From Nanobdellota archaeon (GTDB taxonomy: Archaea; Nanobdellota; Nanobdellia; Woesearchaeales; GCA-2686295), in contig JAHIUF010000031.1 of assembly GCA_018817005.1 (NCBI GenBank), positions 1-63,352 of the forward strand: DNA of 63,352 nucleotides, written 5' to 3'. A program made the position numbers and the translations under genes. The notes under the pieces are model-generated. The model was not told the origin of the DNA. It did not search any database and saw nothing but the letters and a program-made list of their open reading frames with translations. Of the stretch, positions 41,680-63,352 are shown in pieces (positions within the stretch are counted from its first letter, which is position 1; each line of letters begins with the position of its first letter).

Positions 41680-42240
41680 ATGGCAGAATCTGTTTTTAGA
41701 GGAACGATTGAATTTCTAAATGAAATAGGTATTTACGACGTAGTATTGCCCTTTCTTTTAGTCTTCACAATAGTTTTTGCCATACTTGAAAAAACCAAAG
41801 TTTATGGAGTTGAAGAAGTAGAAGGAAAAAAATATACTAAAAAGAATCTTAATGCAATGACTGCATTCGTAGTTTCTTTTTTTGTAGTTGCATCATCAAA
41901 GCTTGTAGAAGTTATTTTAAAGGTTTCATCGCAAGTTGTTGTACTGCTTCTTTTAAGCATATTATTCTTGATGCTTGCAGGATCATTCCATAAAGATGAG
42001 GAATTCTACTTACAAAAAGGTTGGAACACATTTTTCATGGTTCTTATGTTTATTGGAATAGTATTTATTTTTTTAAACGCACTCGGATGGCTTGATACTG
42101 CATATGAATTTTTAAGCGGTCGATGGGATACTAATGCAGTCTCAGCAATAATATTACTGGCTGTTGTCGTAGGATTCATGTTTTATGTCACAAGAGATTC
42201 AAACAGCGGCAAAAAGAAAAAAGAAACTAAGGAGGATTGA
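41680..42240 (+). CDS. Membrane protein, paralogue 1 of a tandem triplet (unknown family)
   Basis: Shared N-terminal block GIYDVVLPFLLVFTIVFAILEKTK, then 3-4 further TM segments and a Lys-rich tail. Confidence 0.6.
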   Translation: MAESVFRGTIEFLNEIGIYDVVLPFLLVFTIVFAILEKTKVYGVEEVEGKKYTKKNLNAMTAFVVSFFVVASSKLVEVILKVSSQVVVLLLLSILFLMLAGSFHKDEEFYLQKGWNTFFMVLMFIGIVFIFLNALGWLDTAYEFLSGRWDTNAVSAIILLAVVVGFMFYVTRDSNSGKKKKETKED

Positions 42241-42246
42241 TTTAAA

Positions 42247-42849
42247 ATGGCTACTTTACAAAATTACTTAATAACTTTAGAATATTGGGGCATCATGGAT
42301 GTAATTCTACCATTCATACTAATATTCACAATTATTTTTGCGGTTTTGCAAAAAACAAAGATTCTTGGTGATGGAAAAAAGAATTTTAACGTTGTAATAG
42401 CGCTGGTTATGGGTCTCGCAGTAGTAATACCTCATATCACAGGTGATTATTATGGTCTATACAGTAAAACTGGGTTTGATGTGGTGGAAGTTATAAATTC
42501 TGCTCTTCCAAACATATCGTTAGTTGCAGTGGCAATAATAATGTTAATGCTAATTATTGGCGTGTTTGGTGGAGAGGTACAAATTGCTGGAACATCACTT
42601 GCAGGATGGGCGGTATTATTTTCAATAGTCGCGGTTGCATTAATTTTTGGAACTGCAGGCGGTATTTTCAGAAATATCCCACCATGGTTATCATTTATAA
42701 GAAATCCAGAAACACAAGCACTGGTTGTTGTAATACTGGTCTTCGGAATACTTATATGGATGATAACAAAAGAGGATAAAGCAGAAAGCAAAGGATTCGG
42801 CAATGTCATGAAAGACTTGGGATCTGTGCTTAAAGGCAAAAAATCATAA
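42247..42849 (+). CDS. Membrane protein, paralogue 2
   Basis: GIMDVILPFILIFTIIFAVLQKTK block. GGAGG lies upstream of the ATG. Confidence 0.6.
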   Translation: MATLQNYLITLEYWGIMDVILPFILIFTIIFAVLQKTKILGDGKKNFNVVIALVMGLAVVIPHITGDYYGLYSKTGFDVVEVINSALPNISLVAVAIIMLMLIIGVFGGEVQIAGTSLAGWAVLFSIVAVALIFGTAGGIFRNIPPWLSFIRNPETQALVVVILVFGILIWMITKEDKAESKGFGNVMKDLGSVLKGKKS

Positions 42850-42866
42850 AAGAAAAAAAATAGAAC

Positions 42867-43436
42867 ATGGCAACATTCCTTGATGTAGGTATATTAGAAC
42901 ACTTTTCAGTAATTTTTATTTTCTTGTTAATTTTTGCTATAACTTACGCAGTTCTTACTTTTTCAAATCCCTTTGGAAAAGAAGCAAAAGGTCTTTATGC
43001 AATAATTGCTTTAGCCATTAGTTTCTTAGTTGTAAGATACAAACCCGCAATTCTTATGATTAACTTCATGACTCCTTGGTTCTTGGTTGCATTTTTATTC
43101 ATTTTTTTCATGCTGGTTATAATTGGCATGTTTGGCGGAGGTCAATTAAATCTTATAAAGCTTGTGAGTGATCCGCAAGTCTATATCTGGATAATTATTA
43201 TATCTGTAATAATACTTGTATTCGGATTATCACACACAATGGGTCAAACCCTTCTTGAAAGAGGGCCTGGAAATGAAACAGTATCTGGACAGATTGAAGC
43301 TGGAGGTTCCACTCAAACTTCAAGTTTTTCGCAAAATGTAGTTAACACTTTGTTTCACCCAAAAATTCTTGGAACACTTTTAATTTTTATGGTTGGTCTT
43401 TTCACGATAATTTTCTTAACTAAAATGCCAAAGTAA
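42867..43436 (+). CDS. Membrane protein, paralogue 3 (most divergent)
   Basis: GILEHFSVIFIFLLIFAITYAVL block with the same length class and TM layout. Confidence 0.55.
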   Translation: MATFLDVGILEHFSVIFIFLLIFAITYAVLTFSNPFGKEAKGLYAIIALAISFLVVRYKPAILMINFMTPWFLVAFLFIFFMLVIIGMFGGGQLNLIKLVSDPQVYIWIIIISVIILVFGLSHTMGQTLLERGPGNETVSGQIEAGGSTQTSSFSQNVVNTLFHPKILGTLLIFMVGLFTIIFLTKMPK

Positions 43437-43462
43437 GAAAATAGAAAATTGTCTAAAAAAAA

Positions 43463-44116
43463 TTATTTTTTGTTTTTCATAACTTCTGTTATTCGAGAAA
43501 GATCATTAACATTATCAATAAAAACCGGTAAGACCTTAGAAAAAACTTTTTCCATGGCTTTTACTTCTGCACCAACATTGAGAATATTCTTATCATAATC
43601 ACCAATTTTACCAATTATTGCTTTGTGTAACTTATCAAAATTATCTTTTAAATCTTGAAATTGTTGCTCCATATTAGAAATCTTGGTTTCAGTTTTATTT
43701 TTCCAATCAATAACTTTTTTTATATCTTTTACAAGCTCATTCCATTTCTCTTCAATTATCGATTCTACAAGTTCTTCTGTTTGAATTGCTGATTGAGAAT
43801 TGAATTGTACTAGTGCTTCTTGAGGTGCAAAGTTTGGTTGTTGAGGGGGAAAATCATAATTCTGGTTTTGAATCTCTGGTTGATCAGAATAATGACTTAT
43901 ATCGCTTTGTGGATAATCATCTTCTTCATGAGTTGTTGGGGGCAGTTCAATCCTGTTTATGGCTTCAAATATTTGTTCAGAAGTGTAACCTGACCTTTGA
44001 AGAGTTTGAATTATTTGATTATTATCAAGTCCTTGTGCTTTCATTGATGAAACTTGATCAACAGGAATGTTATCTGTTTGAGTTTCTGGTGGTGGGTTTT
44101 TTCCAAAAAGTGGCAT
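43463..44116 (-). CDS. Coiled-coil protein with a small helical N-domain and a Q/P-rich linker
   Basis: N-terminal VDQVSSMKAQGLDNNQIIQTLQRSGYTSEQIFEAI, a low-complexity PQ-rich middle, and a heptad-rich C-terminal ~110 aa. Confidence 0.5.
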   Translation of the reverse strand: MPLFGKNPPPETQTDNIPVDQVSSMKAQGLDNNQIIQTLQRSGYTSEQIFEAINRIELPPTTHEEDDYPQSDISHYSDQPEIQNQNYDFPPQQPNFAPQEALVQFNSQSAIQTEELVESIIEEKWNELVKDIKKVIDWKNKTETKISNMEQQFQDLKDNFDKLHKAIIGKIGDYDKNILNVGAEVKAMEKVFSKVLPVFIDNVNDLSRITEVMKNKK

Positions 44117-44169
44117 TTTTAATCACGTAACTTTAAAAACTATACTACAAGGTATATAAATTTTTTTAT

Positions 44170-44598
44170 TTATTTATTAGTGTCAAATTTGTCTTGCTTG
44201 ATAAACCTTTCGAATTCATCTTTTGTAACAAAATTCATTGGTTGCCATAAATCAAGATATTTTTCAAGAACCTTAAAATCTGTTACTTTTACAACTTTTT
44301 CAAGTTCTACATACATCTGACTAATTTTTTGTAATAATTCAGCTAGTTGCTTTTTTAAGTCAAACATTTCTTGATTTATGAGTTTTAACTCATCATGAAT
44401 ATTTTTTTCAAAGTCTAAAAAGTTTTTATCAGACATTTGGGTTTTATTTCTAAGATTGCCATATCTGTCCTCAATAACTCTTAAACGAGAACCAACTTCA
44501 GTTATATTCTTTGAAATAGAATCAAGTTTGGGATTATCTTTTGGATTCGCTTTTTTTGTAGCAGAAAGATTATTGTTTTGTGGGGAGTCGTATTGCAT
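44170..44598 (-). CDS. Coiled-coil protein
   Basis: Heptad-rich throughout. ATG at 44598 (MQYDSPQ) is preferred over the TTG at 44610. Divergent from the ATPase gene. Confidence 0.5.
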   Translation of the reverse strand: MQYDSPQNNNLSATKKANPKDNPKLDSISKNITEVGSRLRVIEDRYGNLRNKTQMSDKNFLDFEKNIHDELKLINQEMFDLKKQLAELLQKISQMYVELEKVVKVTDFKVLEKYLDLWQPMNFVTKDEFERFIKQDKFDTNK

Positions 44599-44684
44599 TT
44601 TTAATAACAAAATTTATAAAGGTTTTATGCTGTTTTATTATAAGAAACAAGCTACATATAAATTTTTCGAACGGAGGTGGGTTT

Positions 44685-49337: not shown

Positions 49338-49441
49338 TGGGAACGCTGGGATTTGAACCCAGGACACCTACGTTTCGACAGTATTTGAATGAATTCAAAA
49401 ACGCTTCAGCGTAGTGCTCTCCCAGTCTGAGCTACGTTCCC
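49338..49441 (-). tRNA. tRNA-Phe(GAA) with a ~30-nt intron next to the anticodon loop
   Basis: The reverse complement reads GGGAACG-TA-GCTC-AGACTGGGA-GAGC-A-CTACG-CTGAAG-[30 nt]-A-CGTAG-GTGTC-CTGGG-TTCAAAT-CCCAG-CGTTCCC-A. D and T loops are canonical, with G37. Confidence 0.9.
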
Positions 49442-49729
49442 TTATTCTACTTTTTCAATAGTTCCTTTTCTTCCAGTTGTGACTTGGAGGTTTCCTTGCC
49501 ACTCATTCACAGAAGCATCTTTTAAGTGAATTTTCATACCAACTTGTACTAAGTCTATTTGTTCATTCCAAAGTGTTAAGGTTATTTCTCCAGAGTTATC
49601 TTTTACTGTTGCACTAGCAACTCTTCCGGGTTTCCCAAATTTTTGGAATTCTCTAATAGGACCTATTTCTACAACGTCCACTTTTAATTCAACATCTGTC
49701 TGCTTTGCTTGTAGTTCTTTTATTTTCAT
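49442..49729 (-). CDS. Single OB-fold nucleic-acid-binding protein (SSB/RPA-like)
   Basis: 95-aa protein with an OB pattern ...GRVASATVKDNSGEITLTLWNEQ...GNLQVTTG. The stop codon abuts the tRNA-Phe 5' end. Confidence 0.6.
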   Translation of the reverse strand: MKIKELQAKQTDVELKVDVVEIGPIREFQKFGKPGRVASATVKDNSGEITLTLWNEQIDLVQVGMKIHLKDASVNEWQGNLQVTTGRKGTIEKVE

Positions 49730-49768
49730 GATAGTGAATGAAAAAACAGCATTCTTTTTTAAACTTTT

Positions 49769-52015
49769 TCATAAGTTTTCGTTAACTTCTTCTTTTAGAA
49801 CGCTTATTAACTCTTCTTTTGTCTTTGAATCACTTATTTTTTTGGCCAGTCTTGGCAGTTCAAATACTCCTAAAATCCAGCTTGCAAAGTCGTTTTTGTC
49901 TGTTGAAACATGGTTTTCAAAGACTTCTTGTGGCATCACGCGCAGGTAACTTTCAAGGTCTGCAATTGATTTTAAGATTACTTTGTTTGAAAGATAGAAA
50001 TATTTGTTTTTATCTGTTGGTTCTTCACAAAATTTTTGATTGACTTTTAATTGTTCTATTGGTTTGTTGTTTATTTCTTCTGTTTCTTCTTGTTCTTGTT
50101 TGGTTTCTTTTGTTTCTTTTTCAACAAGCACCTGCTTAGATTCTGGTTTTGATTCTTTTTTTATTTTCTCTGACTCTTGTATTTTAGTTTGTGGTTCTTC
50201 TTCAGTAAATTTTAAAGCTTTTATTAACTCATCTTTTTTGTCTAAATTATTTATTTTCTTGGCTAGTTTTTCATTTTCAAAAACGTAATTCACAAAATCA
50301 CTAAAATCATTTTTCTCTGTTCCTGCGTGTTTTAAAAAAGTTTTTTCACTAATTCTTTCTAAATATTTTATTAATTGTTTTTTTGTTGTGATGTTTTTTG
50401 GTATTCCAAATAAATGATTCTTTTGGTACTCAATAAAAAGTATTACTGGCAGAATTATAATGAATGTTAGGATAACAAGTATTGTGAATAAGAAGTTAAA
50501 TTTTGTTTTTGTTGTTTTTGGTTGTTCTATTAATTTACTTGTTTCTTCTGTTTCTTTTGTTTTTGTGATTGTTATTTTTTCGCAGTCTGTTTTTGTGTCA
50601 TCTTTTGTTATCAAATCAACACATAATTCAAATTCTCCTTCTTTTAAATCTGAAGCTGAGAAACTATATTGATTTAGATCTGAATTTTTATCAATTGTTA
50701 TTGTTTGTCTTTTTAATATTCTTAGTAAGTCATCATTCTGTTTAACATAAAAAACCGTTTCTGCATCTTCTATGTCTCTTTTTAAAAAGTTTAAAACTTT
50801 GTAAGCTATGACAACTTCTTGCCCGACAGGAATATTTGAATTTTTAATTTGTACGTCGCCATATATCTCTTCATCAATTATAGAAACAACTATTGTTATT
50901 GTTTTTTCAAAACTAGCAAATTTGATTGTAAAGCTGTATGTATCAACTCCAATAGACGCATCTTCTGGAACATTTAGATGAAGATTTATTGAATTCTTAT
51001 CATTTGCAGGAATGTCTATAGTATTTGTTTCAAGAGATAAATATCTCATTTCTGGCTTTAAGTCTAAAGTTAACGTTAAGTCATGATTGGATTTGCTTAT
51101 TAGTTGTATTGAATGTATTTTTTGCTCTCCTTTTGTTGCTTCTATTGTTATTAGTTCAGGAACCATTGTTATTGCAGTTATTGTATCTGTTTCTTCTTCC
51201 ACTTCTTGGGTGCTAGTGCTAATAAAGGAACTACTGCTGGAGCTTCCCCCACTACTTGTGCTTACAACAACACAGGTTTTTGACACTAGTGGTTTGTTTA
51301 TCACAGTCCCACAATCATTCACATCAAAACATAATCTTGAACCACAGTCATCTCCAGACCACGCTTCACAAACCCAGTTTTCTTCACAATATCCTTGTAT
51401 TGAAAAGTATTGATTTGATGTGTGAAATCCAGAAAATTCCGCTGTGTTATTTATTATTTGTAAATTAAAAGTATTGGTTTTATCGATGAAATCAGACCCA
51501 TTATTCCAATACAAACTATAACCTGTATGATTTTCACTTATTGCTGTTGATGCAGAAACATTTGTAAAATGATTTTGTGCTTGAACAGTTATGTTTTTTT
51601 CATAATAAGCTATTGTTATTACTTCTGAATCTTCAACTATTATTGGAGCTAAAACTTCAAACTCCAAAACTGCAATTGTATCTTTTTTTGCTTCCCAGAA
51701 TAAATGTGTTTGAGTTTCAGTAACTATTGTTTCATTTCCTTCTTCGAAAACCGCCCAGTTAAATCCATTAGTCCAGCCTGTTGGTTTTTCTATATTAACA
51801 TTTTTGTTTTCATCCAGATTATAAATTAGTGGTATTCTTATGCTTATGTTTGGACCGTTTGTATTAACAGTTTTATTCAATTGTTCGGTTTGATTAAGAT
51901 TATATTGAACTTCTGGTTGAACAACTGTAATACCTATGTCAAAACTTGCTGCAATTGAAAATATTGCAGTTATGAAAAGCAGAATGATTAATTTGAAGTT
52001 ATTTTTTCCATTCAT
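49769..52015 (-). CDS. Single-pass surface protein whose cytoplasmic tail carries two copies of the recurrent NDF domain
   Basis: N-terminal signal anchor, Cys-rich and beta-sandwich ectodomains, and a poly-Ser linker. TM FNFLFTILVILTFIIILPVILFI is followed by a basic tail with GTEKNDFSDFV...LAKKI and YFYLSNKV...HVSTDKNDFASWILGVF..LAKKI. Confidence 0.7.
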   Translation of the reverse strand: MNGKNNFKLIILLFITAIFSIAASFDIGITVVQPEVQYNLNQTEQLNKTVNTNGPNISIRIPLIYNLDENKNVNIEKPTGWTNGFNWAVFEEGNETIVTETQTHLFWEAKKDTIAVLEFEVLAPIIVEDSEVITIAYYEKNITVQAQNHFTNVSASTAISENHTGYSLYWNNGSDFIDKTNTFNLQIINNTAEFSGFHTSNQYFSIQGYCEENWVCEAWSGDDCGSRLCFDVNDCGTVINKPLVSKTCVVVSTSSGGSSSSSSFISTSTQEVEEETDTITAITMVPELITIEATKGEQKIHSIQLISKSNHDLTLTLDLKPEMRYLSLETNTIDIPANDKNSINLHLNVPEDASIGVDTYSFTIKFASFEKTITIVVSIIDEEIYGDVQIKNSNIPVGQEVVIAYKVLNFLKRDIEDAETVFYVKQNDDLLRILKRQTITIDKNSDLNQYSFSASDLKEGEFELCVDLITKDDTKTDCEKITITKTKETEETSKLIEQPKTTKTKFNFLFTILVILTFIIILPVILFIEYQKNHLFGIPKNITTKKQLIKYLERISEKTFLKHAGTEKNDFSDFVNYVFENEKLAKKINNLDKKDELIKALKFTEEEPQTKIQESEKIKKESKPESKQVLVEKETKETKQEQEETEEINNKPIEQLKVNQKFCEEPTDKNKYFYLSNKVILKSIADLESYLRVMPQEVFENHVSTDKNDFASWILGVFELPRLAKKISDSKTKEELISVLKEEVNENL

Positions 52016-52997
52016 GTTCTATTGCTTTCATCATTTCTTCTTTTGTTTGACAAAACTTCATTGTTTTTGCGAGTTCTGGTTTTTTAAATACTCCTAAAAC
52101 CCAGTTCGAGAAGTCGTTTTTGTCTGTTGAAACATGTATTTTAAAGGTTTCTTGTGGCATTACACGTAAATAATAGTAAATATCCATTATGCTTTTCAGT
52201 GTTGTTCCGTTGTGAAAGTAGAAGTATTGGTCTTGTGATTCTGCAGGTTGTTCTAATTCTTTTTTGATTTCAGTTGCATCTTTTATTTTTTGTTCATCTG
52301 GTATTGCAGTTTCACTTTTTAGTTCTTGTTTTTCTTCTTCATCTGTTGTTTCTGGTTTTATTTCTTTTTTTAGTTTTATTTGTTCTTTTTTTTGTTTGTT
52401 ATCTTTTTGTATAGTTTTATCTTTTTTGAGTAATTTTTCTGATAGAAGATTGCTTTTTTTTACAAGACCTATAAATATCCCTGCTAGAATAACAATTGAT
52501 AATATTCCTATTAGTATACTTTTTACAGTTCTTATTCTTTTTGGAGTTTCTTCTCTTGCTTTTTTCATTATGTATTTGTTATAACCAACTCCGTCTTCAT
52601 TTACAATTACTACATCAAAAGATCGTCTAATTCTCATATTCATTCCTATTTGTCCTCCATCACTACTTGTTTGAGGTTCTACGGCGTAGGTTACAGTATA
52701 ATAATCTCCTATTTTTGCATTTTTTGGACAAGTTATTTTTATGAATAATTCATTATCAAAAGATTTTGGTGAAAGATTGTATGTTGGGTTTTTATCGGTG
52801 AGTTCTGCTACTTCACTTTCAAGGGTTATCTTAACATTTACAGATACATCTTCAGGGTTTTGTAGTGTAAGTCTTACAAAATGGCTTTCACCTTTTAAAA
52901 GTCTTAAAGTGTTATCTTCCATGTAATCTTGAGCTACGCCTAATCCGTATGATAAAGGTATGGTTAATAACAATATAAGTATTAAAAACTGTTTCAT
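51999..52997 (-). CDS. Single-pass surface protein whose cytoplasmic tail carries one copy of the recurrent NDF domain
   Basis: Signal peptide, a ~150-aa ectodomain, TM ILIGILSIVILAGIFIGLV, and a K/E-rich linker. C-terminal YFYFHNGTT...HVSTDKNDFSNWVLGVF..LAKTM. 17-nt overlap with the next gene. Confidence 0.7.
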   Translation of the reverse strand: MKQFLILILLLTIPLSYGLGVAQDYMEDNTLRLLKGESHFVRLTLQNPEDVSVNVKITLESEVAELTDKNPTYNLSPKSFDNELFIKITCPKNAKIGDYYTVTYAVEPQTSSDGGQIGMNMRIRRSFDVVIVNEDGVGYNKYIMKKAREETPKRIRTVKSILIGILSIVILAGIFIGLVKKSNLLSEKLLKKDKTIQKDNKQKKEQIKLKKEIKPETTDEEEKQELKSETAIPDEQKIKDATEIKKELEQPAESQDQYFYFHNGTTLKSIMDIYYYLRVMPQETFKIHVSTDKNDFSNWVLGVFKKPELAKTMKFCQTKEEMMKAIEHEWKK

Positions 52998-53086
52998 CTT
53001 CTTTCATTTTAAGAATTATACTATTAAATATTTTCGTTTTTAATTAAAAGAAAAAGAAAATAAAAAAAAATTAAATTTTAAATTCT

Positions 53087-53950
53087 TTAGTTGTAGGCTT
53101 CAATCAACCAGTTAGTAGTTGAATTCGTACTATATGTACCATTACTTAGTCCTGATGGCAAGTCCAACCAAACATATAAATTCTGTGTCGAGTTTACAGA
53201 TAAGCTTGCACCAGTTATTAGGATGTTACTTCCTACAGCCATACCTGCTGCATCTGCTGTTGCGTTTACTGTAAAGTTTCCAGCGCCAATCGTATCTTCA
53301 CCATTGGTTAAAGAATGCCCTGTTATGTTTATCTTTGTAAATGCGCCATTTCCTGTGTTATTCAGTACTTGTGGGTCGTCTGATGCGTTTAAACCTGTGG
53401 CTCCTGGTGATGCTGAGTTAAAGTTTATATTTGACTGTTCTAGCGTGAATGCGTATAACGTATCATATGTCATCGTGTTTGCATTCGAGTCATTAGCCAC
53501 TGCTGCTGCTCCATCAATAGCTCTTACACTTATATCCCATGAAGCCGATGATTCATCGTAATAATTCATGTTGATTGTACAATCAACTCCTCTGATGTTT
53601 CCTCCAGTCCATGCTCCGTAATCTGCACAACTTGCACTTGATCTTGTTACTCCATTAAATGTTACGTTTGCTGATGCCTGTGTCGGATTAACATCTGTGT
53701 ATCCGTTTGTATCTGTTACATTGAAGTATATGTGAACTGCAGTTGTTGTTCCTTCTGTTGGTGTTCCTGAAGCTGCAGATACTCCTGTAATAGTCGGTGC
53801 AGCGTTGCTTATTACAACTGATATGTTGAAGTATTTCTGTGTGTTGTTTGCTCCAAAGGCTTGTCCTATTACTGGTGTGAACAAACCAATTAGCGTTATT
53901 ACGCACAATATTGTTGTCAGAAATATTATTGTGATTTTTTTTGAGCTCAT
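53087..53950 (-). CDS. Secreted protein paralogous to the C-terminal ~240 aa of the giant surface protein
   Basis: Aligns along its mature length with the giant ORF tail (APTIT..., LYAF.LE...GLNASDDPQ(V/I)LNNTGN...GNFTVNAT...YVWLDLP...NGTY.TNSTT.WLIEAYN*). ATG at 53950 follows GAGGT. Confidence 0.7.
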   Translation of the reverse strand: MSSKKITIIFLTTILCVITLIGLFTPVIGQAFGANNTQKYFNISVVISNAAPTITGVSAASGTPTEGTTTAVHIYFNVTDTNGYTDVNPTQASANVTFNGVTRSSASCADYGAWTGGNIRGVDCTINMNYYDESSASWDISVRAIDGAAAVANDSNANTMTYDTLYAFTLEQSNINFNSASPGATGLNASDDPQVLNNTGNGAFTKINITGHSLTNGEDTIGAGNFTVNATADAAGMAVGSNILITGASLSVNSTQNLYVWLDLPSGLSNGTYSTNSTTNWLIEAYN

Positions 53951-54067
53951 TTTTTTGTTAAACCTCACAAATTAATGTATTTTTTAGTATACTGGTGCCT
54001 TTTTAGATATATTCATATATAAATGTTTCGATTTTCTGATGTTTTGAATATAGAAAAGGCGAAAAAA

Positions 54068-57000
54068 CTAATTATAAGCTTCAATCAACCATTGAGTGGT
54101 AGAATTGGTAGTATAAGTACCATTAAGAAGACTAGTTGGTAAATCAAGCCAGATATACAAGTATTGAGTTGAATTACGAGGAAGGGTTGCACCAGAAATC
54201 AAATTGTTTGAACCAACTTTAAAACCAGCAGAATCAACAGTTGCATTAACAGTGAAATTTCCAAATCCTATTCTGTTAGCTCCAAATGCCAAGTCATAAC
54301 CAGTTATATTTACATAAGTAAAGTTTGCATTTCCTGTGTTGTTTAAAATCTGAGGATCATCTGAAGCATTTAATCCTTGCGTTCCAGGAACTGCAGATGA
54401 AAAACTTATTGAAGCTTTCTCAAGCCTGAATGCATACAAGTAGTTGTAAGTGAAGGTTGTTGTGTCATTATAAGCAGATTCTCCTTCATCATCTTCTATT
54501 GAAACATTTATAGTCCAAGAACCCGGCAAGTCATAATATTGCATGTCAACAGAGCAATTATACGTAACGTTTTCAGAGTCTAAAGTATTGTTAGAACAAG
54601 TTCCAGTTCTTGAAACAGCATCTTTTGTAAAGGAAACAGATGTAGATGTGTGATTGTGGTTACTATCAGTGTCTTGAACAGTGAAGTTAATCTCGACACT
54701 TGTTGTTGTTCCATCTGTTGGATTTTGTGCAGATAATGACTGGACAGAAGTTATTGTTGGTGCTGTGTTTGAAGGTGTCGCTGTTAGCAAGATGTTTATT
54801 TGTTTGCTTTCTGTTAGATTTACATCTCTGCTGTCTGATGTGTATCCGTCCGCGGTTGTGTTTAAGGTGTAGTTTGTTTGGTAAAGTTTGTTAGTATAAT
54901 TTTGTGTGTATTCTGTTAGTGTTTGTCTTGTTATGAATCCTGTTGCAGCTGTTAGTTCTGAGAATATTTCATTATTTGTGTTGTTGTAACCTGTGATGTT
55001 AGCTCCTTCAATAGCACCAGAGCTATTAGAAACATTAACATCTAAATACCATTTAAATACGATTGTAGCACCATTATGTCCGGAACTTAAGCCTGTTTTT
55101 GATTTGTCGTAGGTAACGTTAATAAAGGTGTTTATATCTTCTGGTCCATCAGCATCTGCAATTACTATGTGATATGTTCCTGGCCCGTAAATTTTATCAT
55201 TATAGAATGTGTTATTCTCACTATATTCTATTTTTATATTCCAACAATCTGTTTCTGTACAATTAAATATGTTATTCCTGAAGTTGTTGTTGTTGCAATC
55301 GTCTGCTGATGTGTCTCCTATTAATAGTGTGTTGGTGTTTCCTCCTGATGTAAAGATTATGTTATTTGAGAAATTATTGTTGTCAGCACCTGTTTTCAAA
55401 AATACTGGTCTTGCTTGGTCTGCAGATGCAGTTATATTATTATAATTGAAGTTGTTGTAGTCTACGTCATTCCATAAGTATAATCCATATGAAACCCCTA
55501 AGTCTTGTGATAGTATATTAATTGTGTTGTATTCTATGTTGTTGTGGTAAACCCATTCATACATCATTATTCCATGAGAGAAATGTACTGAGGTTGATTT
55601 TGGTTCTAAATGGTTGTGTGATATGTTTGTGTGGTTAGTTCGTCGTAAGTATATTGCGTATCCACTTCCACCTATTGTTCTTATTGTATTATTATAAACT
55701 AATGTGTTATTATTATATAACAAGTATATTCCTACAGGATAAGTTGTTCCTGCGTTTGTGCTATTAATGCTGAATGAGTTATGTCTTATAATGTTGTTTT
55801 TGGAATATTTTATTGACATTCCATATGGGTAGTTTGCATTTGAGCGTCTTAATATTTGGTTATTTTCTATGGTTAGATTATCATAATTAGTTGAAAACAC
55901 ATTGTTGATGCTGTCTATTTCTCCAAAGTTTCTTATTATGAATCTTGATAGTTTTGTATTGTGAGCAGTTATATTTACTGTATGTTTATTTCCTGTTCCA
56001 TTAATTGTTGGCTTGATTGTTGCGTTGCTTGTTAGGTTTATGGTTTTGTTAATTATTATATCCTCATTGTATGTTTCACTGTCTATAACTCGCACTTCCC
56101 AGTTTTGTGATGCTAAGTTGATACCTTCTTGTATTGTTGTAGCGTTACAGCATCCTCCTGCTTGACATACAACTATCATGTTTCCATATGCTGGACAAGT
56201 AGTTGTTACTGTCACATTATTATTCAAGCTTGTGTCATTTGCAGTGCCATCTGAACATGTTACGTTGTAATAATATGTTCCTGCACTTTGTGTTCCGATG
56301 CTTATGTTGATTGTTAGGTTTCCTCCGTTGGTGGTTGTGGTGTTGCTTCCAGTTAAATCTCCGCTTAGACTACAATTCATTGTTTCTTCTGTGTTGTTAT
56401 CTGTGACATTGATTTTAATTGTTATGCTGTCTGTGTTTGTTGGGCTAGTTGGTGTTGACCAAACACCTGTAATTGTTGGTGTAAGGTTTAGTTGTGTTAG
56501 TACAATATCAATCTGCATGCTGTTTGTTAGGTTTACTTGTCTTGAGTCATTCACATAATTGTTTGCTGTTGTGTTTATGGTGTAGTTCGTTTCATAGTAT
56601 TTACCTGTGTAGTTTTGTACATACTCTGTTAATGTTTGTCTTACAATGAATCCCGTATCTGTTGTTAATTCTGAGAATACTTCATTGTTTGTATTGTTAT
56701 AACCAGTGACATTAGCGTTTTCAACAGCACCAGAAACATCAGTTACATTCACGTCTAAGTACCATTGGACATATATTTTTGACGCTGCGTTTGAAAAGTT
56801 AACTTTTGTTTTGTTAAATGTGTTGTTTATAATATAATTTCGTCCCGTGCTTTCACTATAAATATCATATGTATTTATGTCATTGGCTTTTAAGAAGTTG
56901 TTTATCAACACATTATCAAAAGCAGTTGTGAATCTTATAGGTGTTGAATGTACTAAGTCTTGTATTGGTCTATAAGTTGTTATGTTGTTATTTGTTAAGG

Positions 57001-60000
57001 TATTATTATCGCTGATTCTTATTTGCACAGCAGGTGATCTGTAAGAATAAACTTTTATTGTGTTATTAATTATTTTATTGAAATAATTGTTTTGTTCTAA
57101 ATATATTCCACGCGAATAAAGTGATGCTTCAAGTGTTATGTTATTATTGGAAATATTATTGTAATTAGATGCTTGTAATCTTATCATGTCATTCCATCCA
57201 TAATTGGTTGATGAGTTGAAATTATTGCTATCAATTGATGTGTTGTGTGTGTAATAAAGTCTTAATCCTCTTAAATCAAAGGTGTTGTTTGTGATTGTAA
57301 CATTATTTGACCATGCTAAGTACATTATACCAATATCAAGTGTGTTCTTTATTGTTGTGTCTTGCTCGTTGAAATAATAGTATATTGTTTTGTTATTAAT
57401 CTTGTTTGTAGTATCTATTGATTGATTGAAATGATCTTTTGTAGAGCCTGCTATGTTTATATCATAGTAAGTGGTTGGATTAAGCAAATTGTTTTTAAGA
57501 GTTTGACCTGCTGATGAAGAGATACTTATGGCCATGCCTGATGTTGTTGTTATGTTGTTATAACTTATATAGTTATTTAAGGAATCAACTTCTATTGTTA
57601 TACCATTAGTCCCATCGTTTCCAGTACTGACAGTTATTATGTTGTTACTTAAATTATTGTTGCTTGCAGTTCTAAGATATATTCCTGGACTGTAATGTCT
57701 AGTTGTAATTATTCTGTTGTTTATTATTGTGTTGTTATTTGCATTATCCCTCAATGCTATTCCATAGTTTCTATCACCGCTTCCCAAAGTTGGATTCATA
57801 GTTACATTGTTTCCTGTTATGTTGTTGAAGTATCCTCCATATATGTATACTCCATAAGTAAAATATGTTACAGAATTAATTCTGTTGTTTTTAACTAAGG
57901 AATTATTTGTGCCAATGTATAATCCACGATGCATCACTGGTTCAGTACTATCACCATAGTATCCTAGATATGTTATGTCTGTGTTTTCTATTCTTAAACT
58001 ACTTCCAGCAAAGTTCCACCATTCATAGTTTGTTGTTCCGTTCTTATATCCTGATGTGATGTTGCTGTTGTTTATGTTTAGTGTTCCGGTATTGTTTATC
58101 ACAAACTCTCCATTGGTTGATGAGTTCATAATTAAAGTTATGTTATCTAATGTTAAACTACCAGTGATTGTAACATTTCCGTTCATGGTTATTGTTTGGT
58201 CAGAGCAAGATTCTGTTGAGGTTACATCCCAATTACCGCTAACAGGAGCATTACATAAATCTCCTGTTGTTGTTACTGTCACATTATTATTCAAGCTTGT
58301 GTCATTTGCAGTGCCATCTGAACATGTTATGTTGTAATAATGTGTTCCTGCGCTTTGTGTTCCTATGCTTATGTTTATTGTTAGGTTTTCTCCGTTGGTG
58401 GTTGTGGTGTTGCTTCCAGTTAAATCTCCACTTAGGCTACAGTTCATTGTTTGCCCACTATTGCTATCCGAAACATTAATCTTAATAGTTATACTATCAG
58501 TTTCTGTTGGACTTGCAGGAGTTGACCAAACACTTGATATAACGGGTGCTGTGTTTGATGGGGATTCAATAGTATAACTTATAAAACTGTTATAATCAGG
58601 AGTCAAGTCATACCTATTAATATATGATCCTGTTTCAAAGGTCAGGTTTATGTTATCATCAGAAGATATATCTAAGTCTGACAAAGTCACACTTATTTCT
58701 ACTAATGAGTCATTGGTTGCAGCAGTAGCGTTTGCAACGTAATCATCTGAGCTGTTGTATATTCTCCATAATGTTGAATTAAAGGCTTCTATCATGTAGT
58801 CATATTTGAATGGAAGTGCTAGGTTGGAATCAGGTGTTATGTTTGTTCCTGTGCTGTCATCATTACTTATAAAAACTCTGTGGTGTCTGATATTAGAACT
58901 GTTGTAGTCAAAGCTGTTGTTCAACTCCATCATTATAAACAAGTTGTTTTGATTATTAGCAAGACCGATTGTTTTAATGTCAAAATTGTCTTTTATCAGG
59001 TCTAGTCTGTTGTACGTGAGGTTATAAGGTGCAGCACTGCCTTGGGTAACAACATAATCAATTTGCTTGTCATTTCTTAGTTTCTCAGGCCATGTTGCGA
59101 AAGCCGGTCTTAAACCAGAATAAATTGCTCCTGTGATTAGCTGCACTTCAGTTTCCCATATTGCTGTCGCATTATCATATTTTCTATAGTAAATGTTGTC
59201 TCCTTTTTTATACATTGCATAAATATTGTCTTCTATGTCTGCTGATATCCAAAAAGTGTTATAATATACTCCCCCACCGCCTGTGCCGAAGTCTAATTCG
59301 CTTAAGTTAAGGCCTTTTTCCCATGTTCCATTGAAGTATCGCTTGCTGTATCTCAGGGTTGCTATATCTCCTATGTCTTCATCCTGATAATATAGTATGT
59401 GGGCTGTTTTCTGGCTGTCAACCACAATTGAATTATCACTAGTTGCTTGGTCTAATTGCGTCTGGTCGCCTGCCCATTCTGCCGCGTTCCATGTTCCGGA
59501 GCTTGCGTTCCTAAAACGGTATGCAATGGTCGCATCAGAGTCAGCATCAATATCCCTATAAGAAATATGAACATTGTTATCCCTGTCAATAACTAAATTT
59601 TGATTTGCAATAAATGAGTTTCCGCTCAACGAATCTAAAGCACTCCATGTGCCACTGCTGAGATTATAATATCTGTATCCTATTTTCCATAAACCTCCAG
59701 CTCTGTCGGAGTAACTAACATGCAAGTTATCATTGCTATCTATTCCAATTGATGGAACACTTTCTCTATCTGCAACAATCATATCAGGCATTGCCTGCTC
59801 ACCCTTCCAAGTACTTGCGCTTGAGTTATAAAAATTATAGTAAACATCATCAGGATAGGTTTGTCCTGTATTAGCTGCATCACTCCAAAAAACCCAGATG
59901 TTTTCTTGGCTGTCAATAACTATGGTCTGGGTACTTGCAGAATTTACACTCAAATCAAGTTCACTTATCATTTCAAAAGTCCAGGTGTTTCCTTCATCAG

Positions 60001-63000
60001 CTGATGTTGCAACATAAGAACTATAGTTCGCGGCAGATCCCAAAGGAACATCTCTGGTAAAAGTTATCTTGATATTGCCTTCCAAGTCTCTTGTTATGCC
60101 TCTTTTTGAACTAGTAGTAATAGCACTATAATATGAGTTATTGACAAATACCAGTTCAGCGAATTTACTTCCTGCTCCATCACCCTCAAGGTCAGTAACA
60201 TTCTTCACATCGCCCCAATCAGCAAAGTTTCCATCTATTGCAATTTCATCACTTTCAGTTAAATTTAGGTAAGGTGCAAACCATGTTTCCTGAGAATTAT
60301 CAATCTCTCCTATAGAGTTATTAACCCATATTGTTATGATGTAAGTTCCTGTTGGGTAAAATTGTGCAGTAACAGTGTCGTTCCAATAAATATCTCCGCT
60401 GCCACCATTTGTTAAGGTTGCATTCTGCCAGCTTGTTTCATTTGGATAATATATTTGGGCGATAACAGTGTCAACGCTGCCTGACAAGGTTGTTATGTTG
60501 GCTGTTATGTTAACATTTGTCCCATTCAGTATTTTTTGAGGAGCAGCATTTGCGTCTGACACAACTAAAGAACTCTGAATAATAATACTTGAATTCAACC
60601 AAGAACTATTAAATATTCCATCGTTTGCTAAGCAGCTTAGGGTCCAGTTTTCTCCGGCACTAGTTAAAGAGTCACTAACATTGGCCACATTAACTTCTAC
60701 TCCTTGTGTGTAGTTGTCCCCAGAGTTGTTTGCCCAACCACTTGAATTCAATGTGTTGTCTTTATACCATTTATAATAATAACTAACATCATCTCCATCA
60801 GCGTCTGTTGCGTTACAATAACCAACCAGCGTATCATTAATGTATGCTGTTGTTGGACTTATCCTTGAACTGTTCATTACAGGAGCATAGTTTGTAGTGT
60901 AGTTTATCTCACACCATATCTTATCAATCCAAACAGCATCATTTGGTGCTCCAGGGTCAAGGTTAACAATCCTGATATGCAGGTTGTTGACGTCTGTTGT
61001 TTGGAAGTCAGGGTCTGTTTGTAAGTCTGTAGCGCTTACAATAGTATCAGGACCTGATTCATCAGCAGGCATGCTGACAGTAGAGCCAAGCTGGTTTCCG
61101 CTTCTGTCATCATAAACATAAAAGTTACCGCAGGGGTTAGGTGCTCCGCCTTCATTTATGTACTCAACAAAACATGACAAGTTATTAACAGTCGAAATGA
61201 AATTTGAAACATCGCTTAGTTCAACAATTAACTCTTCACTCCTATCTGGACAGCCGGCATCCCAACTGTCTGTTCGTGAATCATCACTTACAGTTATTAA
61301 AGCAACACCTGTGGATGTCAATGCACTAGCAAGAGGGCATTGTGAGTCTATATCTACAATTGGTAGGAGTGTTTCTATGATTGGCGCATCGCTTGCTATT
61401 TGCCATTGTCTTGCTTCTGTCCATTCACCAATTTCAAGAGCGCCTAATATGTAGAATTCTGGGCTTTTGTCTGGTGCATCAAACTCATAGTTTATTTCAT
61501 ATGTTTCTCCTTTCTTAAGCTGTTTGTTCCAAGTAAGTTTTTTTGTGTCTCCGACAGTTGTTATGCTTAAGTCTTGTTGTGGTGTTATTTCAAAGTTTGC
61601 TGGTACATACTCTGTTATTTCTCCGTTATGATTCTTATTTGCTTTTATTGTGAAATTAATCATATACTTTGCTGGTGGATATATTCTTGTTGGTCCTTTT
61701 CTTACAACATCATAATCTGGTTTTTCTTCTACTTGGAAGTTGTCTGTTATATTTCTTTCACCATTTCTTGTCAAGGCAGTTAGAATCATTTCATATAATC
61801 CTGTGTTGGTTGTATTGTAATAAGTGTAGTAATCGGGCATATTTGTAACTCCGTAATATTCACATTCTGGACTTATAATTATGCTTTCTTCAGAAGTCGA
61901 TAATGTTATTGTTTCATTGTCAGGACTTGTTATTTCTAACAATACTTCTGCGTCACAAACCATTCTTCCTTCATCGTCTAATACGGCTATTCCTATGTTT
62001 GCAGTTTCATTTTCAAGATAGATGCTTTTGTGTGTGTTTATTGCTAGTACTCCCCATGTGAAGTCTTGCTCTACAATGTATGTTTCACCATCTTTTATTA
62101 ACTCTATTTTTAGTGTGTATTTTCCTGGTTTAAAACTTCGTTGTGTTGGTATCTCGATTCTGAACTTTCCTTCTCTGTCTCTGATTATTTCTGGTTGTAA
62201 ACTTATTTTGTGTCCTTTTTTACTGTAAATTTCTATAGTTACTTCTTGTTTTTCATCAATATATTTTTCTTTGTGTTTTTCAAGGTCTATTTTTAGGTCT
62301 TTGTCTTTTATTTTTTCATATTCTGCTTTGTTTATATATTCATATTCAAACTCTGGTTTTTCTTTTAAGCTAAAGTGTTTCTTGCTTGTTATCTTCGGAG
62401 TTATGTTTATGGTTTCATTCAATAACTCTTCTTGTTCTTCAGCTAGAACTTCTATGTTAAATTCATTGCTTCTTACAAGTTCTTCTCCGTCTGTTGCATA
62501 CACATACATTGAGTAGTTTCCGGTGTTGTTTGATGTGAATGTTATCATATTTTCTTCCACTATTGTTTTTATTTCTGCAACTTCTTTTGCATCATAAGTT
62601 AATTTATCGCCGTCAGAATCGTAGAAGTACTCTGATAAGTTTATCGTATAATTGTTATTTGTTATGAATATATCTGATATTTCTTTTATTTGTTGTGGTG
62701 CATTATTTTCTATAAGTATTTGATAGGTTATGTTGTTTAGTATTACCGTTGCATTTTCTACTTCAATTATTATGGTGATATTTGCGCCAATGTTTTCTAG
62801 GAGGCAGGTTTCTTTGCATTCTTTATTAAAAATTATTATTGTTTGCGCTTCTATTAAGGTTTCATTTATTATTTCTGTATGATTTGTCTCACTAATATTC
62901 AAGATTATTGAGTCAGTAATTATTTGTGTTTCATTTTCTTCACTGATATTTATTATAATTGTTGTATTTGAAGTTTCATTAAAAGTTATGTTTTGATAAC

Positions 63001-63352
63001 TAATATTAGTGGTTATAATCTCTGTAAAGTTTTCCAATATTTGCTGTGTTATATTTAAACTTGCGTTTATAGAAATATTTGAGGTTATGTTTTGAGATAC
63101 ACTTTCTATTGTGATATTTATTGTTTGATTAATGGTTTCATTCAAAACTATTGTTAAATTTTCTGAGGTTTTATTTGTTTCATTAATAATTATTGTTTTG
63201 TTAATAGTTATAGTTTCATTTTCGATTGTTTCATTGAAATCTTCTGATACATTTATGGTAAGATTAATTGTTGTTGTGTTTAATGTTTGGTTTGTCTCAA
63301 TCACTTCTTGAGTTATATTTTTCAAATCGCTTTCATTTATTAACTCATCAAA
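54068..63352 (-). CDS. Giant surface protein (over 3094 aa, 5'-truncated by the window edge)
   Basis: Single uninterrupted frame. The frame stays open for the 9 codons between the tracked TTG at 63325 and the window end, and the visible N-terminus has no signal peptide. Domain order: N-x-S/T-rich region, cadherin-like segment, Asp-box beta-propeller, then two [Ig-like, parallel beta-helix, CarboxypepD_reg-like] modules, then a C-terminal two-domain module. Asp box SADEGNTW lies at 59981-60004. The beta-helix regions show PbH1-like repeats with recurring N(N/I)xI motifs. N-x-S/T sequons are very dense throughout. Confidence 0.85.
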   Translation of the reverse strand, partial: FDELINESDLKNITQEVIETNQTLNTTTINLTINVSEDFNETIENETITINKTIIINETNKTSENLTIVLNETINQTINITIESVSQNITSNISINASLNITQQILENFTEIITTNISYQNITFNETSNTTIIINISEENETQIITDSIILNISETNHTEIINETLIEAQTIIIFNKECKETCLLENIGANITIIIEVENATVILNNITYQILIENNAPQQIKEISDIFITNNNYTINLSEYFYDSDGDKLTYDAKEVAEIKTIVEENMITFTSNNTGNYSMYVYATDGEELVRSNEFNIEVLAEEQEELLNETINITPKITSKKHFSLKEKPEFEYEYINKAEYEKIKDKDLKIDLEKHKEKYIDEKQEVTIEIYSKKGHKISLQPEIIRDREGKFRIEIPTQRSFKPGKYTLKIELIKDGETYIVEQDFTWGVLAINTHKSIYLENETANIGIAVLDDEGRMVCDAEVLLEITSPDNETITLSTSEESIIISPECEYYGVTNMPDYYTYYNTTNTGLYEMILTALTRNGERNITDNFQVEEKPDYDVVRKGPTRIYPPAKYMINFTIKANKNHNGEITEYVPANFEITPQQDLSITTVGDTKKLTWNKQLKKGETYEINYEFDAPDKSPEFYILGALEIGEWTEARQWQIASDAPIIETLLPIVDIDSQCPLASALTSTGVALITVSDDSRTDSWDAGCPDRSEELIVELSDVSNFISTVNNLSCFVEYINEGGAPNPCGNFYVYDDRSGNQLGSTVSMPADESGPDTIVSATDLQTDPDFQTTDVNNLHIRIVNLDPGAPNDAVWIDKIWCEINYTTNYAPVMNSSRISPTTAYINDTLVGYCNATDADGDDVSYYYKWYKDNTLNSSGWANNSGDNYTQGVEVNVANVSDSLTSAGENWTLSCLANDGIFNSSWLNSSIIIQSSLVVSDANAAPQKILNGTNVNITANITTLSGSVDTVIAQIYYPNETSWQNATLTNGGSGDIYWNDTVTAQFYPTGTYIITIWVNNSIGEIDNSQETWFAPYLNLTESDEIAIDGNFADWGDVKNVTDLEGDGAGSKFAELVFVNNSYYSAITTSSKRGITRDLEGNIKITFTRDVPLGSAANYSSYVATSADEGNTWTFEMISELDLSVNSASTQTIVIDSQENIWVFWSDAANTGQTYPDDVYYNFYNSSASTWKGEQAMPDMIVADRESVPSIGIDSNDNLHVSYSDRAGGLWKIGYRYYNLSSGTWSALDSLSGNSFIANQNLVIDRDNNVHISYRDIDADSDATIAYRFRNASSGTWNAAEWAGDQTQLDQATSDNSIVVDSQKTAHILYYQDEDIGDIATLRYSKRYFNGTWEKGLNLSELDFGTGGGGVYYNTFWISADIEDNIYAMYKKGDNIYYRKYDNATAIWETEVQLITGAIYSGLRPAFATWPEKLRNDKQIDYVVTQGSAAPYNLTYNRLDLIKDNFDIKTIGLANNQNNLFIMMELNNSFDYNSSNIRHHRVFISNDDSTGTNITPDSNLALPFKYDYMIEAFNSTLWRIYNSSDDYVANATAATNDSLVEISVTLSDLDISSDDNINLTFETGSYINRYDLTPDYNSFISYTIESPSNTAPVISSVWSTPASPTETDSITIKINVSDSNSGQTMNCSLSGDLTGSNTTTTNGENLTINISIGTQSAGTHYYNITCSDGTANDTSLNNNVTVTTTGDLCNAPVSGNWDVTSTESCSDQTITMNGNVTITGSLTLDNITLIMNSSTNGEFVINNTGTLNINNSNITSGYKNGTTNYEWWNFAGSSLRIENTDITYLGYYGDSTEPVMHRGLYIGTNNSLVKNNRINSVTYFTYGVYIYGGYFNNITGNNVTMNPTLGSGDRNYGIALRDNANNNTIINNRIITTRHYSPGIYLRTASNNNLSNNIITVSTGNDGTNGITIEVDSLNNYISYNNITTTSGMAISISSSAGQTLKNNLLNPTTYYDINIAGSTKDHFNQSIDTTNKINNKTIYYYFNEQDTTIKNTLDIGIMYLAWSNNVTITNNTFDLRGLRLYYTHNTSIDSNNFNSSTNYGWNDMIRLQASNYNNISNNNITLEASLYSRGIYLEQNNYFNKIINNTIKVYSYRSPAVQIRISDNNTLTNNNITTYRPIQDLVHSTPIRFTTAFDNVLINNFLKANDINTYDIYSESTGRNYIINNTFNKTKVNFSNAASKIYVQWYLDVNVTDVSGAVENANVTGYNNTNNEVFSELTTDTGFIVRQTLTEYVQNYTGKYYETNYTINTTANNYVNDSRQVNLTNSMQIDIVLTQLNLTPTITGVWSTPTSPTNTDSITIKINVTDNNTEETMNCSLSGDLTGSNTTTTNGGNLTINISIGTQSAGTYYYNVTCSDGTANDTSLNNNVTVTTTCPAYGNMIVVCQAGGCCNATTIQEGINLASQNWEVRVIDSETYNEDIIINKTINLTSNATIKPTINGTGNKHTVNITAHNTKLSRFIIRNFGEIDSINNVFSTNYDNLTIENNQILRRSNANYPYGMSIKYSKNNIIRHNSFSINSTNAGTTYPVGIYLLYNNNTLVYNNTIRTIGGSGYAIYLRRTNHTNISHNHLEPKSTSVHFSHGIMMYEWVYHNNIEYNTINILSQDLGVSYGLYLWNDVDYNNFNYNNITASADQARPVFLKTGADNNNFSNNIIFTSGGNTNTLLIGDTSADDCNNNNFRNNIFNCTETDCWNIKIEYSENNTFYNDKIYGPGTYHIVIADADGPEDINTFINVTYDKSKTGLSSGHNGATIVFKWYLDVNVSNSSGAIEGANITGYNNTNNEIFSELTAATGFITRQTLTEYTQNYTNKLYQTNYTLNTTADGYTSDSRDVNLTESKQINILLTATPSNTAPTITSVQSLSAQNPTDGTTTSVEINFTVQDTDSNHNHTSTSVSFTKDAVSRTGTCSNNTLDSENVTYNCSVDMQYYDLPGSWTINVSIEDDEGESAYNDTTTFTYNYLYAFRLEKASISFSSAVPGTQGLNASDDPQILNNTGNANFTYVNITGYDLAFGANRIGFGNFTVNATVDSAGFKVGSNNLISGATLPRNSTQYLYIWLDLPTSLLNGTYTTNSTTQWLIEAYN
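56202..56475. repeat. Intragenic repeat copy A (Ig-like module) within the giant ORF
   Basis: Aligns without gaps to 58269-58542 (offset 2067 nt), with roughly nine in ten identical positions by eye. Confidence 0.85.
58269..58542. repeat. Intragenic repeat copy B (Ig-like module) within the giant ORF
   Basis: Partner of 56202-56475. Encodes ...VWSTPxSPTxTDSITIKINV...MNCSLSGDLTGSNTTTTNG.NLTINISIGTQSAGT.YYN.TCSDGTANDTSLNNNVTVTTT. Confidence 0.85.

Follow-up and report, generated by a model that had tools for sequence, protein, structure and literature searches.

The 3′ part (positions 41,680 to 63,352) of a 63,352-nucleotide contig from a Nanobdellota archaeon (JAHIUF010000031.1; the whole stretch is hereafter referred to as the window) was analysed. 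A conserved module of seven genes (41680–49200) was identified. Its products probably form the assembly machinery, in the membrane and in the cytoplasm, of a type IV pilus or filament system belonging to a family widespread in DPANN archaea. The module comprises genes for three membrane proteins (MemA, MemB, and MemC), two coiled-coil proteins (cc217 and cc146), a secretion ATPase of 765 aa, and a predicted platform protein of 742 aa (Table 1). All of the open reading frames (ORFs) listed in a preliminary description of this DNA were recovered, but its view that the entire 22 kb is devoted to envelope functions was not sustained. The region consists of two unrelated parts, the module and an adhesin operon (49769–63352), and the single-stranded DNA-binding protein (SSB) and the tRNA-Phe encoded there are not envelope functions. 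The window is an archaeal contig of low G+C content (~31%), and close homologues of its proteins were found in metagenome-assembled genomes (MAGs) of Woesearchaeota/Nanoarchaeota (DPANN). In addition, a 76.7-kb contig with identical copies of the genes of this region, probably from the same strain, runs 13 kb beyond the window.

Table 1. Features of the region 41680–63352 of the window (TM, transmembrane; dot, no strand assigned).
Feature	Coordinates	Strand	Basis or remark
MemA, 186 aa, ~5 TM helices, first of three tandem paralogues	41680..42240	+	ORF, hydropathy
MemB, 200 aa, paralogue of MemA	42247..42849	+	BLASTP
MemC, 189 aa, most divergent of the trio	42867..43436	+	BLASTP
cc217, soluble	43463..44116	-	No TM segment, weak domain matches
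cc146, soluble coiled coil, 142 aa	44170..44598	-	Divergent from the ATPase gene
Intergenic region, 86 bp, AT-rich, between the divergent cc146 and ATPase genes	44599..44684	.	Read from sequence
Secretion ATPase of the PilB/GspE/FlaI superfamily, 765 aa	44685..46982	+	Pfam T2SSE, PDB matches, motifs
Predicted divergent GspF/PilC/TadC/FlaJ-type platform, 742 aa, ~9 TM helices	46972..49200	+	Fold and remote profile
tRNA-Phe(GAA), 104 nt, outside the machine	49338..49441	-	Rfam, 54.8 bits
OB-fold SSB/RPA-like protein, 95 aa, housekeeping	49442..49729	-	Pfam Ssb-like_OB 1e-10, NCBIfam RPA/SSB
Variable surface-protein operon, outside the putative pilus module	49769..63352, on past the window	-	Paralogy, patchy homologues
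748-aa protein	49769-52015	-	Signal peptide and one TM helix
332-aa protein	51999-52997	-	Signal peptide and one TM helix
293-aa protein	53087-53968	-	Copy of the C-terminus of the giant protein
Giant N-glycosylation-rich protein	54068 to beyond the window	-	3226 aa in full

The ATPase was clearly assigned by sequence to the PilB/GspE/FlaI superfamily, because it passed the curated threshold of the Pfam model T2SSE (PF00437; 45 bits against a cut-off of 24.9) and all of its catalytic motifs were intact when the translation was read by eye, namely Walker A (GTRSAGKTS), the Asp box (IEDTLEL), Walker B with the catalytic Glu (LIVGEVR), and the His box (AGTIHG). Its relatives among solved structures in the PDB were AfGspE (2OAP; E = 9e-29), CpaF (3e-20), and FlaI (2e-13). 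FlaI was also among the top partial matches in NCBIfam, in which the TadA-family match was likewise partial, but the score against the FlaI/ArlI equivalog (NF058587) was 108.6 bits and thus below the cut-off of 550 by a wide margin. The most likely start is TTG at 44685 behind GGAGGTG. The long ATPase ORF of the preliminary description was present, but its length was corrected from 800 to 765 aa; the latter length is called in four other assemblies, and the median length of the homologues was 763 aa. A conserved N-terminal domain of ~230 aa (ORF residues ~36–268) lies upstream of the part that aligns to solved ATPases, and its profile found no relative in Pfam and PDB, giving only TM-helix or coiled-coil noise. 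Identity of the ATPase was 58–77% to Woesearchaeales relatives and 48–49% to the distant full-length loci L087, L091, and L094 (loci sampled from other genomes are denoted by L numbers). The intergenic region upstream contains TATA-like elements (tttataaa and catataaa) and the GGAGGTG ribosome-binding site, and is a putative promoter region.

The gene downstream of the ATPase gene was assigned to a GspF/PilC-type platform because of a match in fold, a graded T2SSF signal across the family, EpsF as the top match of a broad profile, and a start that overlaps the ATPase stop by 11 nt. The protein contains two cytoplasmic helical bundles of the T2SSF-like type as well as an additional beta-rich segment (residues ~356–438). 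Its AlphaFold2 model (predicted local distance difference test, pLDDT, 79) matched the cytoplasmic domains of EpsF, OutF, and PilC in Foldseek with a probability of 0.93–1.0 and a target TM-score of 0.61–0.73, the best matches to these three proteins having a probability of 1.0 and a target TM-score of 0.67–0.73. Sub-threshold T2SSF matches were obtained in Pfam for 12 of 29 close homologues. Distant members scored 21–23 bits (~1e-4) in either half of the protein, and the precomputed match of the family member P0411 was at or below 1e-5. When the platform profile was broadened, the top match in the PDB was EpsF (E = 0.016), aligned at the GspF signature helix pair. These results point to a very divergent platform of the GspF/PilC/TadC/FlaJ type with two T2SSF repeats and extra insertions, at the level of fold and remote profile only. 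Accordingly, the FlaI/FlaJ-type motor of the preliminary description was retained as a superfamily ATPase with a platform that is FlaJ/TadC-like at this level, but not as a FlaI equivalog. At 50% identity, the platform family fell into 1222 clusters with E ≤ 1e-3 and into 492 with E ≤ 1e-30. In one assembly of a near-identical strain (L082:12327-14555), the platform gene is split into two called ORFs (542 and 183 aa), so that either the platform is disrupted or there is a frameshift or an error of assembly.

The three tandem membrane proteins were confirmed as paralogues by BLASTP (MemA/MemB, E = 6e-16; MemA/MemC, 2e-8; MemB/MemC, 1e-8), with ~5 hydrophobic segments in each. In the sampled loci they formed a single cluster of 90 proteins over 32 loci. 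MemA carries a conserved motif, G-x-YDVVLPFLLVFT-x(6)-LEKTK, and had 2863 homologues, none of them named; no family was found for it in Pfam, NCBIfam, or PDB, as the profiles gave only TM-helix or coiled-coil noise. In cc217, a P/Q-rich linker joins a small N-terminal three-helix (UBA-like) domain to a coiled coil that is conserved at the C-terminus; the profile matches of the protein were weak (UBA, Raf1_HTH, and coiled-coil). cc146 starts at ATG 44598 and is 142 aa long, as called in NCBI assemblies. The profiles of both soluble proteins gave coiled-coil noise only in PDB and Pfam. A relationship of cc217 to FlaC_arch was considered and rejected, since the match occurred in only 6 of 28 members with E ≥ 0.018 and was judged to be coiled-coil bias. 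MemA, MemB, MemC, cc146, cc217, and the N-terminal domain of the ATPase are thus uncharacterised, and the platform is annotated as hypothetical. No published description of the Mem/cc accessory set was found in literature searches of limited extent. This agreed with the non-standard composition noted in the preliminary description: the trio and the two coiled-coil proteins are conserved and belong to no known family.

Decisive evidence on the nature of the machine came from distant relatives with 26–31% platform identity (L087, L089, L091, L093, and L094), in which the housekeeping genes that surround the module in Woesearchaeales are no longer syntenic. In L094, a Mem-family gene (hidden Markov model, HMM, E = 3e-14) was followed by cc217 (3e-23), cc146 (4e-21), the ATPase (752 aa), and the platform (724 aa), and the two coiled-coil orthologues were ordered and oriented like those of the window. 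Directly after the platform, at least five ORFs encoded canonical class III signal peptides, e.g., RKG/IGTVKTILAITALI and NRKG/LSQILYLIIAAAVL. L087 carries cc217 (HMM E = 1e-27), cc146 (E = 2e-16; placed and oriented like that of the window), ATPase, and platform in this order, and six or more pilin-like ORFs come next, e.g., MTKG/QMPVPYIIAIVIG. In L089, a MAG labelled Aenigmatarchaeota by NCBI, three Mem-family ORFs, the platform, and pilin-like ORFs were all co-directional. Pilin operons also adjoined the platform in L091 and L093, and a divergent operon of six class III proteins lay beside it in L026 (Woesearchaeales). Moreover, Mem genes were followed by pilin-like ORFs in L148, where no ATPase is present. 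Because distant loci keep the accessory genes beside pilin operons, the platform/ATPase family appears, from gene content and order, to be a genuine type IV pilus or filament machine, of which the Mem and cc proteins would be ancient and specific companions. The machine had been described as pilin-less. In the window, the ATPase and platform do lie outside any recognisable pilus or archaellum operon, but the class III protein operons beside the platform in L087, L089, L091, L093, L094, and L026 contradict a pilin-less nature of the family.

One of the proteins in the pilin operon of L091 is large (1340 aa; L091:15771-19314, plus strand, running off the locus end). It has a class III signal peptide (MKG/IDVLFGAITIGFVGAILIFY) with precomputed Peptidase_M23 and faint SLT matches. 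This protein resembles a pilin-fused murein hydrolase, here in a locus of DPANN type, which would suggest a bacterial host or prey; it also hints that some lineages attack the cell wall of their host.

The conservation of gene order was examined in a platform-centred set of 80 loci, each from a distinct GTDB species and all from Woesearchaeota/Nanoarchaeota-type MAGs. The ATPase gene adjoined the platform gene in 62 of 69 informative loci. The full upstream block, with MemA-MemB-MemC on the plus strand and cc217 and cc146 on the minus strand, was present in 25 of 44; the cc genes alone were kept in four loci. In three further loci (L063, L074, and L077), the block had moved ~5 kb downstream (within 10 kb), with the three Mem genes and cc217 forming one co-directional unit. 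A reciprocal MemA-centred scan of metagenome contigs (31 informative loci) gave MemB and MemC in all 31, cc217 in 27, cc146 in 26, and the ATPase in 24. MemA was also syntenic in GTDB loci, and the module recurs in dozens of Woesearchaeales species. The neighbourhood is thus conserved in relatives as regards the seven-gene module, but not the adhesin operon. The ATPase gene was not adjacent to the platform gene in L015, L026, L038, L053, L058, and L069 (Woesearchaeales). In L038, L053, and L058, a conserved protein of ~170 aa (cluster c29) preceded the platform. As ATPase-less platform genes occur in several Woesearchaeales species, the ATPase-platform pair is separable. In addition, a glycogen cluster resembling that at 12623–21426 of the window adjoined the Mem trio in L116, L143, and L163.

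Several observations weigh against the assignment to a type IV assembly machinery with Mem and cc components. Two class III signal-peptide scans of the six frames of the window, of which the first was too strict (known-type pilins in distant loci escaped it) and the second used looser rules and all start codons, gave nothing credible, and neither a pilin nor a prepilin peptidase was found in the 10 kb past the 3′ end of the window on the 76.7-kb contig. Over this distance, the refuting case named in the preliminary description, with pilins just beyond the window, did not arise. The window platform did not reach the T2SSF threshold (PF00482; 12.8 bits against a curated 25.2), and it gave nothing significant in Pfam, NCBIfam, or PDB, either alone or with close-homologue profiles. 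The AlphaFold2 model of MemA was poor (pLDDT 65; predicted template modelling score 0.34), a result that at least does not conflict with an obligate hetero-oligomer. Furthermore, no Mem/cc block was within view in 12 of the 44 informative loci, and housekeeping genes surround the module in conserved order, with AspRS upstream and SSB, GlyRS, RFC, and YchF downstream.

The last two points favour an alternative in which MemABC and cc146/cc217 are unrelated to the machine and are kept near the ATPase and platform only because gene order is generally conserved among Woesearchaeales. Within this group, synteny is by itself weak evidence of a functional link, because housekeeping genes are syntenic to a similar extent: SSB was in place in 31 of 59 loci, along with GlyRS, RFC, and YchF, and AspRS, GlyRS, and RFC were frequent. 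Four of the 31 Mem-centred loci were without the cc and ATPase genes, and no recognisable domain was found in the Mem and cc proteins. We nevertheless consider this alternative unlikely, as Mem/cc families stand beside the ATPase and platform or beside pilins in L087, L089, and L094, where the housekeeping synteny is gone. The co-directional arrangement of Mem genes with the platform and pilins in L089, the Mem genes adjoining pilin-like ORFs in L148, and the single Mem-cc217 unit in L063, L074, and L077 also argue against it.

The absence of pilins from the window, together with the pilin operons that adjoin family members elsewhere, therefore suggests dispersal of the pilin genes. The preliminary description had reported no class III signal peptide, prepilin peptidase, or FlaF/G/H in the window, and this was upheld by the six-frame scans and by a scan of most ORFs of at least 110 aa, in which no Peptidase_A24 or FlaF/G/H was found. 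The signal peptidase encoded in the window is a Sec-type signal peptidase I (2199–2819). The pilins and prepilin peptidase of this genome are assumed, by analogy with the relatives, to be encoded elsewhere. In archaeal ATPase/TadC modules, pilin genes are often separate from the module (PMC4858521), and flaB- and flaK-type genes have been reported in most Woesearchaeota MAGs (PMC11606122; PMC5994134).

In the mechanism proposed for the type IV machinery, a hexameric PilB/GspE-type ATPase (765 aa) would hydrolyse ATP and drive the GspF/PilC-type platform (742 aa), which would pull pilins, their class III signal peptides cleaved, out of the membrane and add them to the base of the filament. Pilins and prepilin peptidase would be supplied from elsewhere in the genome. 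cc146 and cc217 may act as a cytoplasmic scaffold or as regulators of the ATPase, possibly docking on its N-terminal domain, and MemABC may form a hetero-oligomeric membrane sub-complex around the platform, with a role analogous, not homologous, to that of PilMNO, ArlX/ArlCDE, or ArlF/G. The machine would most likely serve to attach the cell to host or partner cells, or to interact with them. A bolder version is possible, if doubtful: MemABC, cc146, cc217, and the N-terminal domain of the ATPase might be obligatory parts of a DPANN-specific class of type IV machine, in which a polytopic hetero-oligomeric ring and a cytoplasmic coiled-coil cage replace PilMNO or ArlX/ArlCDE/ArlFG. Such a machine would be a conserved host-engagement device, in some lineages with pilin-fused cell-wall hydrolases (the M23/SLT protein of L091).

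Instead of an adhesive pilus on the outside of the cell, the filament might be a short pseudopilus for secretion or for uptake of DNA or other substrates, as in type II secretion systems (T2SS) or Com systems. The bacterial core machinery also serves secretion and DNA uptake (PMC6711533), the M23/SLT protein of L091 suggests enzyme delivery, and DPANN cells must import many building blocks. In the relatives, however, several pilin-like genes are present, some of them large and with VWA or Ig-like parts, as is typical of adhesive pili, and no ComEC/ComEA-type DNA-translocation genes were found at the loci; a pseudopilus therefore seems rather improbable.

Much of archaeal diversity belongs to the DPANN archaea, the majority of which presumably live in attachment to other cells. 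To our knowledge, the molecular hardware of this attachment is largely unknown. The present analysis defines a putative seven-gene type IV pilus assembly module that is conserved from Woesearchaeales to Aenigmatarchaeota. Its five uncharacterised components and the one ATPase domain offer concrete targets for complex-structure prediction, cryo-electron tomography of enrichments, and annotation.

Among known systems, the module resembles archaeal type IV pili with stand-alone ATPase/TadC modules (euryarchaeal Clade 2 and subclade 4F; PMC4858521), in which a VirB11/PilB-family ATPase is likewise followed by a TadC/FlaJ-type platform. In these pili the pilin genes are often located elsewhere in the genome (PMC4858521), as proposed here, and a lineage-specific cytoplasmic coiled-coil protein has been reported in subclade 4F (PMC4858521), to be compared with cc146/cc217. 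Nanoarchaeal ATPases without identifiable cognate pilins have also been noted (PMC4858521). AfGspE (2OAP) was the best solved match of the module ATPase. Unlike these archaeal modules, the present ATPase carries the additional N-terminal domain, the platform is ~150–200 aa longer and is missed by T2SSF models, and the conserved partners are a trio of polytopic paralogues and a pair of specific coiled-coil proteins.

The module shares with the bacterial Tad/Flp pilus the likeness of its ATPase to CpaF and, in part, to the TadA family, as well as two T2SSF-type repeats in the platform. In the Tad/Flp pilus, however, the platform is divided between two proteins, TadB and TadC; neither TadZ nor a secretin (RcpA) nor TadD/G was found here, and the Mem and cc proteins are without a Tad counterpart. 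A functional analogy is possible with PilM/N/O of type IVa pili and GspL/M of T2SS, as accessories linking the ATPase to the platform. No homology of MemABC, cc146, or cc217 to these proteins was detected in profile searches. PilN, PilO, GspL, and GspM cross the membrane once and carry ferredoxin-like periplasmic domains, and PilM resembles actin, whereas MemABC have five TM segments and cc146/cc217 are soluble.

The adhesin operon downstream of the module encodes the giant protein and its partners. The giant ORF is open at the end of the window, and in the 76.7-kb contig it encodes 3226 aa with an N-terminal signal or anchor. The part within the window contains 175 N-x-S/T sequons and no C-terminal anchor, which is typical of variable DPANN surface proteins; homologues were patchy and covered small parts only. 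As described previously, the 293-aa protein is paralogous to the C-terminus of the giant (53% identity to its last 234 residues; BLASTP, E = 1e-71), and the 748-aa and 332-aa proteins share a C-terminal domain (43% identity over ~160 residues; E = 1e-32). This common cytoplasmic domain, with the motif HVSTDKNDF-x-W-x-LGVF, occurs twice in the 748-aa protein and gave a sub-threshold match to DUF5752 (21.2 against 23 bits). Just past the 3′ end of the window, a 174-aa cytoplasmic protein with two internal helix-turn-helix (HTH)-like repeats (L086:9493-10017, plus strand) overlaps the start of the giant gene by 17 nt and is a candidate dedicated regulator of the operon.

On the 76.7-kb contig, the gene of a small HTH-like protein precedes the giant gene, and those of GlyRS, RFC, an HTH protein, IscS, NifU, and a YchF-type GTPase lie farther out. 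SSB is directly followed by GlyRS-RFC-YchF in L001, L003, and L004, the closest relatives. Because these genes are adjacent there and are split by the operon in the window, the operon looks, by this comparison, like an independent, strain-variable insertion into a conserved backbone. It is thereby removed as a false lead and is not a part of the machine. These data bear on the single 22-kb supercluster of the preliminary description, read here as a truly pilin-less ATPase and platform that would export or deploy the giant adhesin and its partners. The genes are adjacent and convergent in the window, and orthologues of the 748- and 332-aa proteins also lie downstream of the platform, in the same position, in L006 (63% platform identity). 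This was, however, the only one of 59 informative loci in which homologues of the adhesin operon followed the platform. In addition, the signal peptides of the giant and its partners are of the ordinary Sec type, and relatives of the machine adjoin pilins. Such a supercluster is therefore very unlikely.

An archaellum (motility) motor, ArlI/ArlJ with ArlH and ArlX or ArlCDE, has an ATPase and platform superfamily in common with the module, and cytoplasmic coiled-coil accessories surround it, a role that cc146/cc217 may play by analogy. KEGG-style annotation names such genes flaI/flaJ in Woesearchaeota MAGs (PMC5994134; PMC11606122), and FlaI appeared among the partial matches of the ATPase, but a motility motor is hardly credible given the failed ArlI equivalog threshold, AfGspE rather than FlaI as the best solved relative, accessory genes unlike ArlCDE/X, and no ArlH, ArlF, ArlG, or ArlB in the window. 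The sole KaiC-like protein of the window (25807–26616, 16 kb from the module) was considered as FlaH/ArlH and rejected as a generic KaiC-like ATPase, as it scored 50 against 215 bits for ArlH.

The OB-fold protein and tRNA-Phe of the preliminary description were confirmed by the Ssb-like_OB and RPA models and by Rfam, respectively. A functional link between SSB and the machine, e.g., in DNA uptake, was rejected, since SSB travels with GlyRS, RFC, and YchF as backbone synteny. The tRNA-Phe gene directly abuts the SSB stop codon. It was detected by Rfam and missed by ARAGORN on the window, and when read by eye it showed the anticodon GAA and an intron of ~31 nt after position 37. A second tRNA (341–428, plus strand, 88 nt) was likewise Rfam-positive and ARAGORN-negative, and is probably also intron-bearing.

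Other gene clusters were observed upstream of the module. Tandem class II Asp/Asn-type tRNA synthetases of 431 and 586 aa, the latter with a bacterial-type GAD insertion domain, are encoded on the minus strand (33203–40718), followed by a GatA-like amidase, a 75-aa ORF (possibly GatC), and GatB. These genes fit a transamidation route and a possible acquisition of a bacterial-type AspRS. The glycogen metabolism cluster (12623–21426) encodes a GDE_C amylo-1,6-glucosidase, a nucleotidyl transferase, a eukaryote-type glycogen synthase (PF05693; E = 1e-161), a GH57 protein, and a GT4/GT5 starch-synthase-like enzyme. Further, an FG-GAP beta-propeller protein, the archaeal KaiC-like ATPase, a HerA-type ATPase, and an Mre11-like phosphoesterase are encoded in one direction on the plus strand (24534–29758).

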